From: a virus
Taxonomy: Duplodnaviria; Heunggongvirae; Uroviricota; Caudoviricetes
IMG/VR virus record: IMGVR_UViG_2651869691_000005
Reading direction: 5' to 3' (one strand)
DNA: 26,439 nt
A program made the translations under genes and the position numbers. Shown here piece after piece: positions 5,648 to 14,615 of the stretch. The notes beneath the pieces are model-generated. The model worked only from the letters and a program-made list of their open reading frames with translations, searched no databases and was not told the origin of the DNA. The stretch's first letter is position 1. Each line of letters begins with the position of its first letter.

Positions 5648-5974
5648 TCAGGGTGCTGAAGGACTAAAGATAAATGTTTTCTTCACGCCTTTACGCGGCT
5701 TGTCCTTCTCAAATCGCCATTTTGCCATCGCCTTTACAACCTGCTCATCAAACAGATGGTGCGGCTCTGAACGGATAAACTCAATTCGGGTGACAGTACC
5801 ATCAGCACCAATATCAAACTTCACATCAACCCGTCCCTTTATATAATTTGCCGCGGCATAGGCCGGATATTGTGGTAATGCCTTAACCAACTGTCGAGGC
5901 ATATCTGTTTTATGTTGCGTACAGCCCATAACCAAAGAAGACAACAAAATAATTAACGGAAGATTTCTTTTCAT
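5648..5974 (-). CDS. Small lipoprotein with TonB C-terminal-like domain (moron between lysis genes and cos)
   Basis: From ATG 5972-5974: MKRNLPLIILLSSLVMGC... (signal peptide with lipobox-like Cys), then YPAYAAANYIKGRVDVKFDIGADGTVTRIEFIRSEPHHLFDEQVVKAMAKWRF, which fits the TonB_C pattern. Not lambda Bor. Confidence 0.55.
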   Translation of the reverse strand: MKRNLPLIILLSSLVMGCTQHKTDMPRQLVKALPQYPAYAAANYIKGRVDVKFDIGADGTVTRIEFIRSEPHHLFDEQVVKAMAKWRFEKDKPRKGVKKTFIFSPSAP

Positions 5975-6649
5975 TTTTATTCCCGGCATAGATAAGAATA
6001 AGTCTTATTCTAACAATGCAGCCCTGTCGGTCATCAATCCTCTGCTTAATGGCAATGACAATTATCCGACTTAAATCACAAATCAGACACATGACATAAC
6101 AGAGCTTGCGAGGTAACACATCGTCCGGTTTCTTCCACCATCGCACCGGACCAGCGACCATGAGGGGACAACGCCGCGCTCCGTTAACACGGTAAACCCC
6201 GGTGTGTATCGTTTTTGATTATCCCCGCACACTCGCGCAGAGGAGTCTCCCTCTCGGGCTGTGGTCTCTGTTGATGCGGGAATACGGCGACGATACAGTG
6301 CATAGTTATGTCAGGCTAAAATGCCTTTATCAAATCTGGGTAACGCAATCTGCCATTGTTGGCTCCGGTTGTGGTGATGATGTCAAGCAAGCCCATCTTG
6401 ACTATCTCAACTAGTCGATTCATGACATATGTCACATTTATACCAACCAGATCATTGCGTTGAGTTTACAACTCAATAATTCTTGGTTGGACGTCAAGTT
6501 TTGACGGTATTCGGGTGGCAGTTGATAGCAATCTTGGAACCGTCCACCTAATAGCTGCTTGTGTGGCGTTTAAATTGTGGAGTGCTCGCAACAGAACTTT
6601 TCTTTCTTGTTTGCGAGCGATGTTTAGCAACTTTTAAGAGAGTTAAGTC

Positions 6650-6880
6650 ATGGAGTTTTTGAAAGAGCATCATTTGCCTTCAATAATTTTTGGAATTTTT
6701 TCCGCCATTTTTTGGATTATTTCATGTTTTGCATCTTCCAAAGAACACCCACCAAAAACGGAACAAGGCAGTTTCTCATCACTGGGTTGTTTTAAAGCCA
6801 TTGAAATACAAAGTAAATGGAATAAACGGGCTGCTTTTTGCGCAGCGTTAGCTGTTCTTGCTCAAGTATTTAGCTTTTAG
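6650..6880 (+). CDS. Hypothetical small membrane protein (76 aa)
   Basis: ORF with a hydrophobic segment (LPSIIFGIFSAIFWIISCFA), opposite in orientation to the late genes, followed by an intrinsic terminator. Upstream region is rich in palindromes. Confidence 0.4.
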   Translation: MEFLKEHHLPSIIFGIFSAIFWIISCFASSKEHPPKTEQGSFSSLGCFKAIEIQSKWNKRAAFCAALAVLAQVFSF

Positions 6881-6897
6881 TTTCAAAAGTGTAAATC

Positions 6898-6931
6898 AGA
6901 ACCACTCGTATAGCGGGTGGTTCTCTGTTTT
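6898..6931 (+). terminator. Rho-independent terminator downstream of the 6650-6880 gene
   Basis: AGAACCAC...GTGGTTCT stem followed by a T-rich tract (CTGTTTTATT). Confidence 0.55.
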
Positions 6932-6996
6932 ATTCGTGTTGCGACTAAAACTAACTAAAATCACGCATATGAAAGATAATGGGAAAATTATCGCTA

Positions 6997-7434
6997 TCAT
7001 CGAAGGCATTGCGTCCTAATGTACTCCTGCAAGTAGTTAACCTGCGCGGTTATCCTGTCGATTCCACTTCGGAGACGGTAATAATTGAGTTCAGCATCTG
7101 CTGTAAGTCCTGGGGTTTCTCCATTGCCCATGCCGCTGGCTCCGGTCGTTGACTTTGCACAGGTGGCGGCGACTTGCAGGCGCTTACGCCCAGCAGAAAC
7201 ATCAGCACGGAGACTTTCGATAGTCGCATTAGCATCAGCAAGCTCCTTTGTGTATCTGGCGTCAAGTTCTGCTACATCACGTTGCCGCTTCTGCATATCA
7301 GCGATGATGGATGTGGCTTTATCGCGCTGCTCTTTGTAGGCGATGGCGTTATCACGGTAATGATTAACAGCCCATGAAAGGCAGACGATGAGGCAGATGA
7401 CCAGAACGTAGATAATCGCGGTTACTCTGCTCAT
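6997..7434 (-). CDS. Rz: Spanin, inner-membrane subunit (Rz)
   Basis: [39 protein letters not shown]... closely matches the lambda Rz N-terminus as recalled. Start ATG 7432-7434 overlaps the endolysin stop. Confidence 0.85.
7050..7235 (-). CDS. Rz1: Spanin, outer-membrane lipoprotein subunit (Rz1), embedded in Rz in the +1 frame
   Basis: Embedded ORF; from ATG 7233-7235 it reads [33 protein letters not shown]..., a lipobox followed by a proline-rich segment, the classic Rz1 arrangement. Confidence 0.75.
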
Positions 7435-10538: not shown

Positions 10539-10874
10539 ATGAAGTGGATTGTGATTGATACAGTTATCCAGCCATCATGCGGAATATCTTTTTCAGTCAT
10601 ATGGAGTAAAATAAAATTAATAATCTGGTATCAATCGGATGCTTTCTTACCTCCTGAAAGTATATTTACACTGACTCACACAGGTATCATGCTCAATAAC
10701 AAAGTGCTACCTGTAACCATTTACAACGTAGTACCATTCAATAAAACATTCTGGAATTTAATCAAAAACAGCCAGGAATGCCCTACAAATACAGATAACG
10801 TATTGAATGAATGCTTTAATAACCGTTGCACTCTGCAAATATGTCCTTATGGGCTAAAACAACAAAATCCATAA
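10539..10874 (+). CDS. Hypothetical protein (111 aa) in AT-rich cargo segment
   Basis: ORF with a good SD (AAGGAAACTAAATG); Cys-containing C-terminus. No family recognised. Antisense to the late operon. Confidence 0.35.
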
Positions 10875-11306
10875 GGAGTTTACTCACATCTGACAAAATC
10901 AATATAAACAGCCCCTCCGGAGAGGGGCTGGAGAGTGGCGCTATGTGCCATTGCATGGTGCCGGGTGCCTCCCGGTGAATTCAGTACCAGCACCTGAATC
11001 CGCGATTATCCCATATACCTACTCGCTGATTGCCCCTCCGCACAGGGGGATTCACCATGCCAGTTTCTTTTAACAAACTCCCCGCAAACCAGACAACAGT
11101 CAACCGCCTGAATTGTGAAGTATTTAAAAATTTCTCCGGCTAACAGTCTGGCGTTTTCTTTTTCAGCAACGGGAAAGCAACAACCACCACACCCGCCACC
11201 AGTACACAGTCAGCCAGCACTGACATTATCCGGCTGCTGCAATGCCATTCACAAAAACAGTAAGCAATCACTTTTTACCGTAACAGGTGATAATCCAGAT
11301 ATGTAT

Positions 11307-11770: not shown

Positions 11771-11847
11771 TGGCGCGTTGTACTGGATTCGAACCAGTGA
11801 CCGATTGCTTAGAAGGCAATTGCTCTGTCCGGCTGAGCTAACAACGC
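11771..11847 (-). tRNA. tRNA-Arg (anticodon UCU)
   Basis: Reverse complement GCGTTGTTAGCTCAGCCGGACAGAGCAATTGCCTTCTAAGCAATCGGTCACTGGTTCGAATCCAGTACAACGCGCCA folds as a canonical cloverleaf with a TCT anticodon, TTCGAAT T-loop and encoded CCA. Confidence 0.8.
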
Positions 11848-11860
11848 ATAATGCAGATAA

Positions 11861-11937
11861 TGGATTGCCATCGGGGACCCGGGCCCCACACAGCCAGTTT
11901 CGAAAGCTGACGCTCTCTGCCGATGAGCTAATGGCGG
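11861..11937 (-). tRNA. tRNA-like element, possibly a degenerate tRNA (candidate anticodon UCG)
   Basis: Lies between two clear tRNAs with a D-arm-like GCTC...GAGC, but the acceptor stem has two terminal mismatches and the T-loop is CCCGGGT rather than TTCRANY. Confidence 0.35.
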
Positions 11938-11944
11938 TATGTGA

Positions 11945-12020
11945 TGGTGGCCCTTGCTGGATTTGAACCAGCGACCTGGCGATTATGAGTCGCTCGCTCT
12001 CACCACTGAGCTAAAGGGCC
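11945..12020 (-). tRNA. tRNA-Ile2 type (anticodon CAU, ileX/ileZ-like; elongator Met cannot be excluded from sequence alone)
   Basis: Reverse complement GGCCCTTTAGCTCAGTGGTGAGAGCGAGCGACTCATAATCGCCAGGTCGCTGGTTCAAATCCAGCAAGGGCCACCA; canonical cloverleaf, closely resembling E. coli ileX as recalled. Confidence 0.8.
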
Positions 12021-12069: not shown

Positions 12070-13119
12070 TCAAACGATTAAATCCTGAACTTCCCTGACT
12101 GTCTGTTCAAAACGTCCTGTCTCCAGCTCAACACCAATCGCACAACGCCCCAGTGCCATCGCCGCTTTTACCGTTGAACCTGAACCCATAAAAAAATCTG
12201 CAACCAGGTCTCCCGGACGACTGCTCGCGTTGATTATCTGCTGCAGCATTTCTGCCGGTTTTTCGCACGGATGTTTCCCTGGATAGTACTGCACCGGTTT
12301 ATGCGTCCAGACATCGGTGTACGGAACCTGCGCCGTCACACCGAAATACCGCCGCAAATTTTTATATTCACTCAGCAGTTCCGTATACTGCCGGTTCAGC
12401 TCACTGTATGTGCTGACCAGCTGGTGGTGTGGCTTTTCCAGTTCCCCGCGCTGATGTTTTTCTGCCGCAACACGCGCAAACAACGCCTGCAATTTGTTGT
12501 AATTACCCTCGTTCGGTAACTGCCACTGACTGGTACCAAACCAGTGCGAAGCCATGTTTTTCTTTCCGGTGGCTTCCGCTATCTGTTTTGACGTTATTCC
12601 CAGTGATTTACGCGCATCACGAAAGTAAGAAATCAGCGGGGCCATGACGTGCTGTTTTAGCTCGCGCCCCTGTGCCACATAGCCATCATCTTTCGGGCGA
12701 TACGGTCCCTGATAATGTTCTGCAAACAGAATGCGCTCTGTTGCCGGAAAATACGCCCGCAGACTTTCCTTATTGCACCCGTTCCAGCGTCCGGACGGCT
12801 TCGCCCAGATAATGTGGTTCAGCACATTAAAGCGCTCACGCATCATGATTTCGGTGTCAGATGCCAGGCGATGACCACAGAACAGGTAAAGACTTCCGGC
12901 AGGCTTCAGTACCCGCCAGAACTGCGCCAGACACTGGTCCAGCCATTTCAGGTAATCATCGTCGCCCTCCCACTGGTTATCCCAGCCCTCGGGCTTCACT
13001 TTAAAGTATGGCGGGTCTGTGACTATCAGATCGACAGAGTTTTCCGGTAAGGTCTGGATAAATTCCAGGCAATCAGCGTTGATTAACTCACAACTGGATA
13101 TTTTTACAGTATTAATCAT
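12070..13119 (-). CDS. Orphan DNA methyltransferase (beta-class amino-MTase, probably N6-adenine)
   Basis: 349-aa ORF with motif IV DPPY near the N-terminus (LIVTDPPYF) and motif I FxGxG near the C-terminus (DFFMGSGST). No restriction endonuclease ORF is adjacent. Confidence 0.85.
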   Translation of the reverse strand: MINTVKISSCELINADCLEFIQTLPENSVDLIVTDPPYFKVKPEGWDNQWEGDDDYLKWLDQCLAQFWRVLKPAGSLYLFCGHRLASDTEIMMRERFNVLNHIIWAKPSGRWNGCNKESLRAYFPATERILFAEHYQGPYRPKDDGYVAQGRELKQHVMAPLISYFRDARKSLGITSKQIAEATGKKNMASHWFGTSQWQLPNEGNYNKLQALFARVAAEKHQRGELEKPHHQLVSTYSELNRQYTELLSEYKNLRRYFGVTAQVPYTDVWTHKPVQYYPGKHPCEKPAEMLQQIINASSRPGDLVADFFMGSGSTVKAAMALGRCAIGVELETGRFEQTVREVQDLIV

Positions 13120-13269
13120 AGATCAATAAGCACTTCTCTGATAGGCTCATACCGCTTTTGCGCAAAGCAGATGGGCCTGAGGTTTGCTTGTGACCCCAAC
13201 GCATGAGCAGATGGCTGGCAGGTGCCGCTAACACCCACCAGCCGCCCATTACCACAAATTAAAAAGCCT

Positions 13270-13467
13270 TCACTGCGGAAGGCGTCTGTAACAACCGAAC
13301 TGATAATCTGCCAGACCCGCCATAACAAGCTGAGTCAGTATTAACTGGCAGCGTTCGCGTGAAAGGTAAGTATTCTGCGCAATTTCCCCGACGGTCGCCG
13401 GTTCGGTGACGCTTAATTCATTAAACACCACTCTGGCGGTTTCGGTCATATCCTGCTGTTTTAGCAT
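13270..13467 (-). CDS. Hypothetical small winged-helix-like protein (65 aa)
   Basis: Internal ATG at 13465-13467 chosen within track ORF 13270..13590; MLKQQDMTETARVVFNELSVTEPATVGEIAQNTYLSRERCQLILTQLVMAGLADYQ looks like an HTH. Lies just downstream of the terminator after Q. Confidence 0.35.
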   Translation of the reverse strand: MLKQQDMTETARVVFNELSVTEPATVGEIAQNTYLSRERCQLILTQLVMAGLADYQFGCYRRLPQ

Positions 13468-13589
13468 GCTTTTTTCCCTTTTCCGGTTAACGTGACATAC
13501 CAATACCTCTTGTCGAAAAAGCCAGCAAGCTGAAAGACCAGTATTCACAACTACCAGCGCGTTTAATGTTCTGTGCCGTTTTTCAGACA

Positions 13590-13616
13590 TAAAAAAACCC
13601 GCATAAAGCGGGTTCT
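13590..13616 (-). terminator. Intrinsic terminator downstream of Q (candidate tR')
   Basis: Minus strand reads AACCCGCTTTATGCGGGTTTTTTTAT: a 7-bp GC-rich stem, 5-nt loop and U-run, about 80 nt after the Q-like stop. Confidence 0.65.
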
Positions 13617-13698
13617 TTCAGGTGTCCATGTCTGCTATTCGCCTCGCGGTATAGCTTTGCGAAGCGTAGCTGGATTGAAACAGTTTATGCGTAAAAAA

Positions 13699-14241
13699 TC
13701 AAGACATTTTTTGAGCAAACGATTCTCGCATAGGGATGTATAGCGCATATTCAGCAACAGCCAACCAATTAGCAATTCGCTTTTCGCATGTACTAAAACA
13801 CCATTCCGGGTGCACCTCATTCAACAATTCAGCCATTTTGCGTTTACTCATCCCCCGCCCTTCGTACCTTTGCCGCAGGATATCAATCAATCCAGGATAA
13901 CGTGCAAGCGCTTTACTTATCACCCCATCAATGCGTAACGCCTCTGCATCAGTACAGTGAGACAACCAGCTCTTCTGTCTGCCAGCGATCATCTCTCGCA
14001 AGAATGCTTCCAGCTCTGGTTTATCAATCCCTGACTCCCTGATTCTACGCAGGGCTTCATTGATTGCGGTTTTTGTCAGTTTTTTGGATGCCAGCAACTG
14101 ATTGAACATATTTCCTGGTTTGCCACCACCTATATACGACCAACGCCCCCACATCCGTAATTTCCCCTGGATCCAGACGGCTTCCAGCGTTTTTAGACGT
14201 AAATGCTCGCCGCTTTTGCCTGTAATTTCCGGGTATATCAT
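13699..14241 (-). CDS. Putative late antiterminator (Q-like)
   Basis: Assigned mainly by position: directly downstream of rusA and upstream of a strong terminator and the late genes. I do not recognise the sequence with certainty. Start ambiguous (ATG 14239-14241 or GTG 14251-14253). Confidence 0.5.
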   Translation of the reverse strand: MIYPEITGKSGEHLRLKTLEAVWIQGKLRMWGRWSYIGGGKPGNMFNQLLASKKLTKTAINEALRRIRESGIDKPELEAFLREMIAGRQKSWLSHCTDAEALRIDGVISKALARYPGLIDILRQRYEGRGMSKRKMAELLNEVHPEWCFSTCEKRIANWLAVAEYALYIPMRESFAQKMS

Positions 14242-14249
14242 ATTTACGA

Positions 14250-14615
14250 TCACTCACTCTCAATTTTGTAAATCTTCACGCCCAGCCGTCCCCCAGGAAC
14301 GCGCTGACCGCGCACAATATTGATTTCATCAAACTGCTCGTCGTCTATGAGAAGTCCGGCATGCGTCAGCGCATCCAGTGGTGCTTTCAGGATATTGTCC
14401 AGGTCACGACGACGTTTATCCGGTGGCTCTGCAATAATCTTTATCGCCAGCCTTCCGGACAGGTTTAATTTCAGCCGCTGCTGGCGAACAATAAGCGCCA
14501 CATCACGGCGATAACGCTCACCGGCTTTTGATACAAAATATGTGCTGCCACGACGTCGCCAGTAAGTGTTCACCGTTGGCGGGTAAGGCAAAACAAATTC
14601 TATGCGTTCAGTCAT
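14250..14615 (-). CDS. rusA: Holliday junction resolvase RusA
   Basis: 121-aa ORF MTERIEFVLPYPPTVNTYWRRRG...PDKRRRDLDNILKAPLDAL...; RusA-like length, catalytic DLDN region and nin-region position. Confidence 0.85.
   Translation of the reverse strand: MTERIEFVLPYPPTVNTYWRRRGSTYFVSKAGERYRRDVALIVRQQRLKLNLSGRLAIKIIAEPPDKRRRDLDNILKAPLDALTHAGLLIDDEQFDEINIVRGQRVPGGRLGVKIYKIESE

Follow-up and report, generated by a model that had tools for sequence, protein, structure and literature searches.

A conserved folded RNA leader precedes an M.EcoGII-family adenine methyltransferase gene in the late operon of a lambdoid prophage and probably limits its translation

In a 26,439-nucleotide (nt) stretch of viral DNA (class Caudoviricetes; IMG/VR record IMGVR_UViG_2651869691_000005), hereafter the window, i.e., the whole stretch at its full length, the gene of a 349-amino-acid (aa) DNA methyltransferase is immediately preceded by a strongly conserved, folded RNA leader of about 140 nt, which ends at the start codon and probably limits the translation of a toxic enzyme. 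On the minus strand, the order is the antiterminator gene Q, a strong terminator (T1), a small open reading frame (ORF) of 65 aa, the methyltransferase gene and a group of transfer RNA (tRNA) genes (Table 1). The module itself is already known, namely an orphan methyltransferase of the M.EcoGII family heading a lambdoid late operon, and what appears to be new is the leader. Considered as a whole, the best explanation is a late-operon M.EcoGII-family enzyme placed behind a translational-control leader, to which a probability of roughly 0.7 is given. A first-pass annotation, made from the sequence alone, had drawn attention to the methyltransferase and the small ORF following the Q terminator, without noticing either the leader or the further U-run hairpin (T2) in which the small ORF ends.

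Loci were collected at one per species with the methyltransferase as query. In loci without the small ORF, spurious ORFs were found just 5' of the enzyme, with alike peptides in different frames, which pointed to conservation at the nucleotide level. A first alignment of the 170 nt 5' of the start codon from 53 loci revealed a block that extends over some 140 nt as far as the AUG, with many invariant positions and insertions or deletions of 1 nt; since such indels occur and the spurious ORFs lie in frames differing by locus, a coding explanation was rejected. Mean identity to the reference is 85% in the leader, compared with 84% at codon positions 1 and 2 and 53% at third positions in the most conserved part of the enzyme, and the leader is under strong purifying selection. 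A covariance model (R1) based on helices P0, P1, P3 and P4 matches all 58 leader-bearing loci with scores of 43-167 bits, and only on the methyltransferase strand, the reverse strand giving at most 17 bits. The model-based alignment has 95.5% of its cells paired, and both-sided, i.e., compensatory, changes are present in 18 of the 28 pairs compared with 3-6 in slid controls, figures that are flattered because this alignment was fitted to the model. The same picture is obtained from a MAFFT alignment, with pairing at 93% and 14 compensated pairs, slid controls giving 4-8. None of 500 shuffles equalled the observed pairing values, and 8 out of 11 pairs are compensated in the helices specific to the junction fold. 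The occurrence of G-U pairs and the low score of the reverse strand both point to an RNA of the same sense as the methyltransferase gene. The junction fold, namely a three-way junction of P0, P1 and P3 followed by P4, is taken as established.

Several stretches of the leader are conserved and unpaired, i.e., UGUGgAAAU, CAUG..GGUCACA, ACCaAG, and GAGCCUAuCA. Further pairings were considered and discarded. A pseudoknot between the 5' UGUG and the CACA of the P3 loop (PK1) is compensated in a single locus (L005) and broken in others, so that it remains speculation; a second one between GGUCA and the UGAUC before the AUG (PK2) shows one-sided changes only and is not kept as a covarying helix, being retained solely within the alternative fold described below; and the pairings GCUCA/UGAGC and AUCA/UGAU are without compensation wherever a side varies.

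The leader is closely associated with the enzyme gene. A 20-nt pattern of its core is present in 119 viral contigs, in 117 of which the methyltransferase starts 74-75 nt downstream of the first base of the motif, the remaining two being cut by the contig end. Among 5426 complete Escherichia coli genomes, 2709 carry the leader, in up to 8 copies. In metagenomes, a pattern scan for divergent leaders returned 120 loci, 100 of which were screened; three are genuine, all with the leader-methyltransferase arrangement, and the others are chance 14-mer matches. When region 13100-13300 was searched in isolation against Rfam 15 at E<=10, no family was found, the only three matches being at chance level (E>4). 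No description of the leader was found in the literature, of which coverage was incomplete, so that an earlier description elsewhere is possible. We believe that it is an undescribed RNA element dedicated to enzymes of the M.EcoGII type. In loci from Xenorhabdus and Photorhabdus (L133-L166), a shortened leader lies about 125 nt upstream of the methyltransferase; it keeps the 5' GUGAAAUGG flank and P1, is devoid of P0, P3 and P4, always stands beside a winged-helix gene, and is matched only marginally by the covariance model (E about 0.03-0.09).

As regards the enzyme itself, the first-pass annotation had recognised a beta-class amino-methyltransferase, which agrees with the match to PF01555 (N6_N4_Mtase, E=2e-44) and with the motif order, DPPY (residues 35-38) preceding FMGSG (310-314); all catalytic motifs are present and the ORF is intact. 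The same annotation considered that the target specificity could not be read from the sequence, a view that does not hold here. The protein is identical to M.EcoGII at 316 of 350 positions (~90%), end to end and at equal length, and to the reconstructed ancestor SUPREM/Anc284 at 247 of 350 (71%), again end to end; as the references were read from images with a few errors (for M.EcoGII, Supplementary Table S1 of PMC11551740), these identities may shift by a few residues. M.EcoGII and its sister M.EcoGI are prophage-encoded and methylate adenine irrespective of the surrounding sequence (Murray et al. 2018, PMC5778455), and non-site-specific activity was experimentally retained in SUPREM/Anc284 (PMC11551740). 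Given its close identity to two experimentally non-specific enzymes, the window enzyme is predicted to be a non-specific adenine methyltransferase. A sequence search of the PDB returned only generic beta-class relatives (RsrI, CcrM, MboIIA and others) and is uninformative on specificity, as the matches cover the catalytic core and not the recognition domain.

Like M.EcoGI and M.EcoGII of E. coli O104:H4 C227-11 (PMC5778455), the window enzyme has 349 aa and the beta order DPPY-target recognition domain-FxGxG, is borne by a prophage and has no known cognate endonuclease in the window. It differs from M.EcoGII by about 34 substitutions, and neither the upstream ORF nor the leader was found described in published M.EcoGII work. 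M.EcoGI and M.EcoGII are unexpressed in the lysogen, are deleterious on expression and were proposed to overcome host restriction; the family was placed on prophages, with phage 1720a-02 named as a close relative (PMC5778455). M.EcoGII itself is thus silent in lysogens; for the window allele, activity is predicted from the sequence. Homologues from Shiga toxin-producing E. coli of serogroup O111, with ~93% amino-acid similarity to M.EcoGI/GII, were catalogued as "nonspecific" and were inactive in culture (PMC6602927).

Table 1. Coordinates of the leader, its helices, the methyltransferase gene and surrounding features in the window
Feature	Position	Strand	Basis or remark
Conserved structured leader RNA, ~140 nt, ending at methyltransferase AUG	13117..13259	-	Alignments, covariance model
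Helix P0 (UGGGC/GCCCA, closes three-way junction)	13248-13244 with 13176-13172	-	Compensatory changes
Helix P1 (long hairpin, fully re-written in divergent loci)	13243-13213	-	Compensatory changes
Helix P3	13211-13206 with 13188-13183	-	One pair: C-G 29, A-U 10, U-A 9, U-G 6
Helix P4	13169-13164 with 13158-13153	-	Alternates GCUUU/AAAGC and GCUG/CAGC
Alternative fold helices	13249-13244 with 13208-13203; 13195-13185 with 13132-13121; ~13177-13171 with ~13150-13144	-	Single-sequence minimum free energy fold
M.EcoGII-family beta-class N6-adenine methyltransferase, 349 aa, predicted non-sequence-specific	12070..13119	-	PF01555 and homology
Hairpin T2 (GCCUUCCGCAGUGAAGGC) then UUUUUAAUUU	13256..13283	-	Terminator scan match; small-ORF stop codon in loop
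65-aa winged-helix gene (phrog_331; "TrmB family" in RefSeq)	13270..13467	-	Ribosome-binding site, homologues, dN/dS, AF2 (AlphaFold2) model
Intrinsic terminator T1 (tR'-like)	13590..13616	-	AACCCGC-UUUAU-GCGGGUU then U7
Candidate PR'-type late promoter (TTGATT, 17-nt spacer, TTCAAT)	13674..13702	-	Read from sequence; overlaps Q stop codon
Antiterminator Q (DUF1133 / Phage_antitermQ type)	13699..14253	-	Pfam and PHROG
tRNA, ileZ-like (CAT)	11945-12020	-	ARAGORN; Rfam tRNA among 72.5/22.2/70.1-bit matches
Degenerate tRNA	11864-11937	-	Rfam 22.2 bits, below threshold; missed by ARAGORN
tRNA, argO-like (TCT)	11771-11847	-	ARAGORN; Rfam tRNA match

The methyltransferase gene had been placed downstream of Q and of the terminator that follows it, and this position stands, all elements being in the same orientation on the minus strand; as in a lambdoid late operon, Q is followed by an intrinsic terminator and then by late genes. 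The identity of Q is based on Pfam (DUF1133, E=6e-103; Phage_antitermQ, E=2e-6) and on phrog_753 ("anti-termination protein Q-like", E=8e-78), and phage homologues at ~80% identity carry a Q annotation. The PR' candidate scores under the threshold of the promoter scan and lies about 75 nt from T1, a position and a distance that agree with the PR'/tR' short-transcript layout of Shiga-toxin (Stx) phages (PMC7547250). Between Q and the methyltransferase gene (minus strand, 13700-13119), the promoter scan detected no sigma-70-like site. T1 is the strongest inverted repeat in 13100-13700 (repeat I1, 13587-13623) and the dominant hairpin in the minimum free energy (MFE) fold of 13575-13705(-), with z = -4.5; a simple terminator scan missed it because its stem runs into the U-run. 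Phage SfV has an annotated terminator at the equivalent place. Homology to the modules of Stx phages stops at ~13602, within the T1 hairpin, so that T1 marks a mosaic joint at which the module has been joined to different Q genes. As regards T2, inspection by eye shows, immediately 5' of the leader in most of the 58 loci, a GC-rich hairpin that varies in sequence and leads into a U-rich run; an automatic hairpin-plus-U-run test was positive in 19 of the 58, the U-run being weak in many. From the gene order, the lack of promoter-like sites on this strand and the PR'/tR' mechanism known from Stx phages (PMC7547250), the best reading is that the methyltransferase would be expressed from the Q-antiterminated late transcript, as the first-pass annotation had proposed, which also fits the silence of the family in lysogens (PMC5778455).

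Two further signals were seen between the Q stop and T1 (13575-13705, minus strand), namely a second stable hairpin at ~13666-13630 and a -10-like TATACC about 16-21 nt past the putative start, which resembles the promoter-proximal pause regions of Q-dependent promoters. A 21.6-bit match of the Q-proximal short transcript to isrK was rejected; with the region searched alone, it is one of a dozen equally weak, terminator-driven matches to unrelated small RNAs (sRNAs).

Besides the junction fold, the leader can adopt an alternative fold, in which P1 is lengthened by AUGGGC/GCUCAU, GGCC.CA pairs with UG.AGCC, and GGUCAcAAGCA (13195-13185) pairs with UGCUUauUGAUC (13132-13121), immediately 5' of the AUG. 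Each of its helices is incompatible with P0 or P3. For the leader of the window, the single-sequence MFE is -61.4 kcal/mol for the alternative fold compared with -33.8 for the covarying one, and RNAalifold on the alignment gives -89.8 versus -86.2. Across sequences, pairing reaches 92% in the helices that only the alternative fold has, compared with 23-38% when these are slid. A G-to-A change in UGGGC (column 16) of one locus (L092) is compensated in P0 and improves the alternative-fold pair too. From these models, a fold sequestering the start region is plausible. In the window sequence, no usable Shine-Dalgarno (SD) sequence was found for the methyltransferase, the start codon of which abuts the leader, and the simplest reading of these two facts is that the leader controls translation initiation.

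The region would then work as follows. Being the part of the late operon nearest to the promoter in an stx-negative lambdoid prophage of E. coli, it would be transcribed from just past Q, and transcription would halt at T1 unless Q modifies RNA polymerase, as extrapolated from the PR'/tR' pairs of lambda and Stx phages. Antiterminated RNA would pass T1, the winged-helix gene and T2, and then enter the leader and reach the methyltransferase start codon. By homology, the enzyme would methylate adenines in any context and protect progeny DNA from many restriction systems of the host; being harmful to the growing host, it must be silent in the lysogen. The leader would be a cis-acting RNA setting or gating methyltransferase translation, the junction fold leaving the start region free and the equilibrium, i.e., alternative, fold burying it by tying the P3 loop and 3' strand to the 17 nt just 5' of the AUG. 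Since all strands of the junction are made before the 3' tail, the junction would form first in transcription, and translation would be restricted either to nascent transcripts, with a kinetic trap allowing a brief burst from each, or to RNAs whose junction is held by a stabilising factor, for which a ligand, the winged-helix protein and the methyltransferase itself are candidates. The winged-helix protein would be a frequent and dispensable companion, possibly the stabilising factor. Two terminators that are passed only with Q, together with the leader, would make three layers of silencing for a gene dangerous to the lysogen. Of this picture, the identities of the genes, their synteny and the conservation and covariation of the RNA are shown, and late expression, non-specific activity and translational control are inferred. 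In its fullest form, the proposal is that the leader represents a new class of cis-regulatory RNA, bistable, with a junction that is either stabilised by a ligand or factor or transient on nascent RNA, and that it licenses a burst of translation of an otherwise lethal enzyme; this is put forward tentatively, at somewhat less than even odds.

A comparable logic is found in the com-mom module of phage Mu, a late, broad-spectrum anti-restriction DNA modification that is toxic if mis-expressed, where translation is controlled by a small upstream gene and by structure in the mRNA where the modification gene begins, com overlapping mom. The window module is similar in being a late toxic modification, but Mom is not a methyltransferase, and the ORF of the window encodes a winged helix rather than the zinc ribbon of Com, lies 150 nt upstream of the enzyme gene and does not overlap it. 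With filters off, the leader model gave no match in the com-mom region of Mu. A Com-family zinc ribbon encoded upstream of and overlapping the enzyme gene is not present in the window and was met only in one relative, i.e., Aeromonas phage PCAh2 (L006), where the leader (1302-1437, 43 bits) is followed by a Com-family ORF (1435-1623), the methyltransferase (1574-2629) and then lysis genes. In PCAh2, the terminal AUG of the leader is the start of the Com ORF, which in turn overlaps the start of the M.EcoGII-family methyltransferase; its product is a zinc ribbon of the Mu Com family (PF10122, 34.5 bits, above threshold), with the PHROG label "translational regulator". The presence of a true Com-family gene behind the same leader supports a post-transcriptional control of this enzyme family. 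In Mu-like prophages, alpha-class genes of the Hia5 type sit in the position of mom. As reported through PMC5778455, Hia5 and M.HaeV (hin1523) are near-non-specific N6-adenine methyltransferases of alpha class (Drozdz et al. 2012); the window enzyme differs by its opposite motif order, its unrelated sequence and the type of phage. As for the burial of the start region, the maturation gene of phage MS2 and the hok mRNA have their start regions buried by long-range pairing at equilibrium and are translated from a transient or alternative fold. The leader has no sequence or structural homology with either, and a similar kinetic behaviour would be hypothetical here.

Several observations weigh against the explanation preferred here. 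The alternative fold covaries at 6 of 23 pairs, no better than slid controls; the few compensations result from segments that hardly vary, and the complementarity could merely reflect how conserved the sequence is. At its 3' tail, the leader is variable, some divergent versions having an SD-like AAGGG, so that sequestration of the start region may not be universal. The winged-helix gene is missing from 22 of the 58 loci that keep leader and methyltransferase, and it is present with a truncated leader in Xenorhabdus and Photorhabdus, no fixed partnership of leader and winged-helix protein being evident; besides, M.EcoGII is active without other proteins. The PR' candidate is only a weak consensus match. 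In the recognition domain, 14 of 77 residues are unlike M.EcoGII, and the hand-corrected M.EcoGII sequence has no exact database match, which indicates that the reference text holds further errors.

Among the other explanations, the leader could be a riboswitch, the junction of which would bind a small molecule, S-adenosylmethionine or S-adenosylhomocysteine being obvious candidates, with the ligand choosing the fold. In keeping with it, several helices meet in a junction whose unpaired nucleotides are highly conserved, two folds exclude each other, the start codon is right at the 3' end, and the leader is present across loci without a fixed protein partner. It is nevertheless unlikely, considering that no Rfam riboswitch class is similar at E<=10, that metabolite sensing meets no obvious need of a late phage gene, that the truncated versions of Xenorhabdus and Photorhabdus are devoid of P0, P3 and P4, and that the sequence does not reveal any ligand.

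The small upstream gene deserves attention in its own right. Its longest reading spans 13270-13590 (106 aa), the conserved start being the ATG at 13467 (65 aa), with the ribosome-binding site AAGGGA 8 nt 5' of it; the 65-aa form is annotated by RefSeq in the identical locus and its start Met aligns across genera. There are 334 homologues in the Enterobacterales, and the ratio of nonsynonymous to synonymous substitution rates (dN/dS) ranges from 0.03 to 0.45 in comparisons with 57 orthologues, in which synonymous sites are saturated. The ORF noticed between terminator and methyltransferase is therefore a genuine gene under selection. PHROG 331 is labelled "unknown function". The AF2 model, with a mean confidence score (pLDDT) of 89.6, has the topology H1-H2-H3-beta-hairpin of a winged helix, and the best Foldseek matches, with marginal E-values, are MarR/OhrR, IclR, the N-terminal winged helices of O-methyltransferases and the RNA-binding winged helix of SelB; in Pfam, the best are TrmB (below threshold, E=0.003), MarR and DprA_WH. 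Among 81 loci from different species, 57 have the gene in front of the methyltransferase, and so do 101 of 108 viral contigs. The protein is possibly a regulator, an RNA-binding activator or an accessory subunit. In two loci without it (L096 and L104), a 79-aa cysteine-rich ORF with four CxxC pairs lies 5' of the leader, ~200-450 nt upstream of the methyltransferase start (locus coordinates 2558-2797), with no significant Pfam match.

As an accessory subunit, the winged-helix protein would redirect or restrict the methyltransferase, e.g., to RNA or to particular sites. A precedent exists in Stx2a phages, where the MT-A70 enzyme M.EcoPA8orf6770P acts on 16S rRNA only together with the winged-helix protein PNB-2, small winged-helix proteins being likewise encoded upstream of the methyltransferase with a terminator between (PMC10810198). 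RNA methylation by M.EcoGII-family enzymes is published, the synteny is tight in E. coli phages, and SelB stands among the structural neighbours. This partnership is nonetheless improbable, as M.EcoGII is fully active alone whereas M.EcoPA8orf6770P requires PNB-2, the latter system involves an unrelated enzyme family encoded elsewhere in the phage, the winged-helix gene is absent from many leader-bearing loci as counted above, and a terminator-like hairpin and the leader separate the two genes, without translational coupling.

C-proteins of restriction-modification systems, such as C.PvuII and C.AhdI, are proteins of Xre-type fold that recognise C-box palindromes and set the timing of endonuclease expression. 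The first-pass annotation had suggested that the 65-aa protein could be a controller of this type, in which case it would bind upstream of a site-specific orphan methyltransferase and time its expression. What the two have in common is a small helix-turn-helix gene just 5' of the modification gene, and its presence directly upstream in the diverse loci and viral contigs counted above speaks for this reading. The other C-protein features are absent. The fold is a winged helix and not the five-helix helix-turn-helix of the Xre type; a C-box search found no inverted repeat in 13468-13586, i.e., 5' of the ORF, and 13100-13700 yields only T1 and the RNA helix P1; and the enzyme family is non-specific. 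The identical RefSeq locus that spans the window has 46 annotated features, none of them a restriction endonuclease, so that the methyltransferase is indeed without an adjacent endonuclease, as first noted. With the gene also missing from 22 loci that keep leader and methyltransferase, the identity as a C-protein was rejected and transcriptional control of this kind is very improbable.

The window was judged to be a lambdoid prophage from a 100%-identical RefSeq locus spanning it (E. coli O111:H2 strain 12A). In this locus, from the immunity region outward and on the same strand, the replication genes, DUF968, RusA, Q, the methyltransferase module and the tRNAs are followed by sialate esterase, holin, lysozyme, spanin, terminase, and portal genes, and no stx genes were found. 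The Q-to-tRNA segment (2.6 kb), in whole or in part, has matches in 3422 of the 5426 complete E. coli genomes, a recurrence that excludes a chance pattern, and in 297 phage records, for the most part Stx-converting phages; the window and phage 1720a-02 share 88.8% DNA identity. The gene order is already known, being annotated in SfV, phiP27, cdtI, and many Stx phages. In SfV, it comprises Q, a terminator, the small ORF, the methyltransferase and lysis genes, both terminators being marked; cdtI and mEp460 have the order Q-terminator-small ORF-methyltransferase with lysis genes directly after, and phiP27 has Q, the small ORF, the methyltransferase, tRNAs, and stx2e.

That the module is instead a decaying remnant of a cryptic prophage, with an inactive methyltransferase and surroundings without current function, might be supposed from the description of M.EcoGII as unexpressed on a "cryptic prophage" and from the 933W-type Stx2a phages, which keep only its last 33 codons. 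It is a most doubtful view for an intact ORF with all its catalytic motifs, the exact protein of which is found on 321 contigs within a cluster of 3716 members, next to a small gene with a dN/dS well under 1 and a leader under purifying selection, and in a module shared by inducible, sequenced phages, namely SfV, phiP27, cdtI, mEp460, and Stx2 phages. Least credible of all, an element acting at the DNA level (operator, promoter, or a recombination joint maintained through mosaic exchange), which the location of the conserved 140 nt between two exchangeable modules and the near-perfect DNA palindrome of P1 might suggest, is contradicted by compensatory changes in four separate helices including the long-range P0, by tolerated G-U pairs, which would not match on the opposite strand or under duplex symmetry, by the strand asymmetry of the covariance model (122-167 bits versus <=17), and by the fixed register of the leader to the AUG with no promoter consensus.

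M.EcoGII is a widely used reagent in chromatin-accessibility and RNA-methylation methods, and its relatives occur in thousands of genomes of pathogenic E. coli, adjoining the Shiga-toxin slot. The published suggestion for its silence in lysogens is that the gene is simply untranscribed; a dedicated leader would add a post-transcriptional layer, in parallel to com-mom of Mu. It could also account for the reported trouble in expressing the enzyme and would serve as an annotation marker for the module. Should the leader bind a ligand or a protein, it would constitute a new class of regulatory RNA.

Downstream of the methyltransferase, the arrangement of the tRNA cluster (11771-12020) is also found in phiP27 and Stx2 phages, and the degenerate tRNA between the ileZ-like and argO-like genes is probably a decayed argN. 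In the slot occupied by the stx genes in Stx phages, the window carries iraM (10539-10874, plus strand), encoding an anti-adapter that inhibits RssB; it is a moron-like insertion. The Rfam family STnc100, an sRNA, is matched at 10900-11089 on the minus strand with 132 bits against a gathering score of 47; located between the tRNA/iraM region and the esterase-lysis cassette, the match terminates in a hairpin terminator (10930-10909) and may represent, within the mosaic late operon, another late-leader or terminator element. In the 933W-type Stx2a phages (e.g., CP111102.1 EDL933-Stx, KP682373.1, AP012532.1), the remnant of about 33 codons (residues 316-348) is a deletion scar, the winged-helix gene, T2, the leader, and most of the enzyme being gone, and the deletion moved Q/PR' nearer to the tRNAs and stx2. 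Finally, phiP27 (L002) has a gene of the GIY-YIG nuclease family (409 aa, 5929-7158) between its Q-like gene and the winged-helix ORF.

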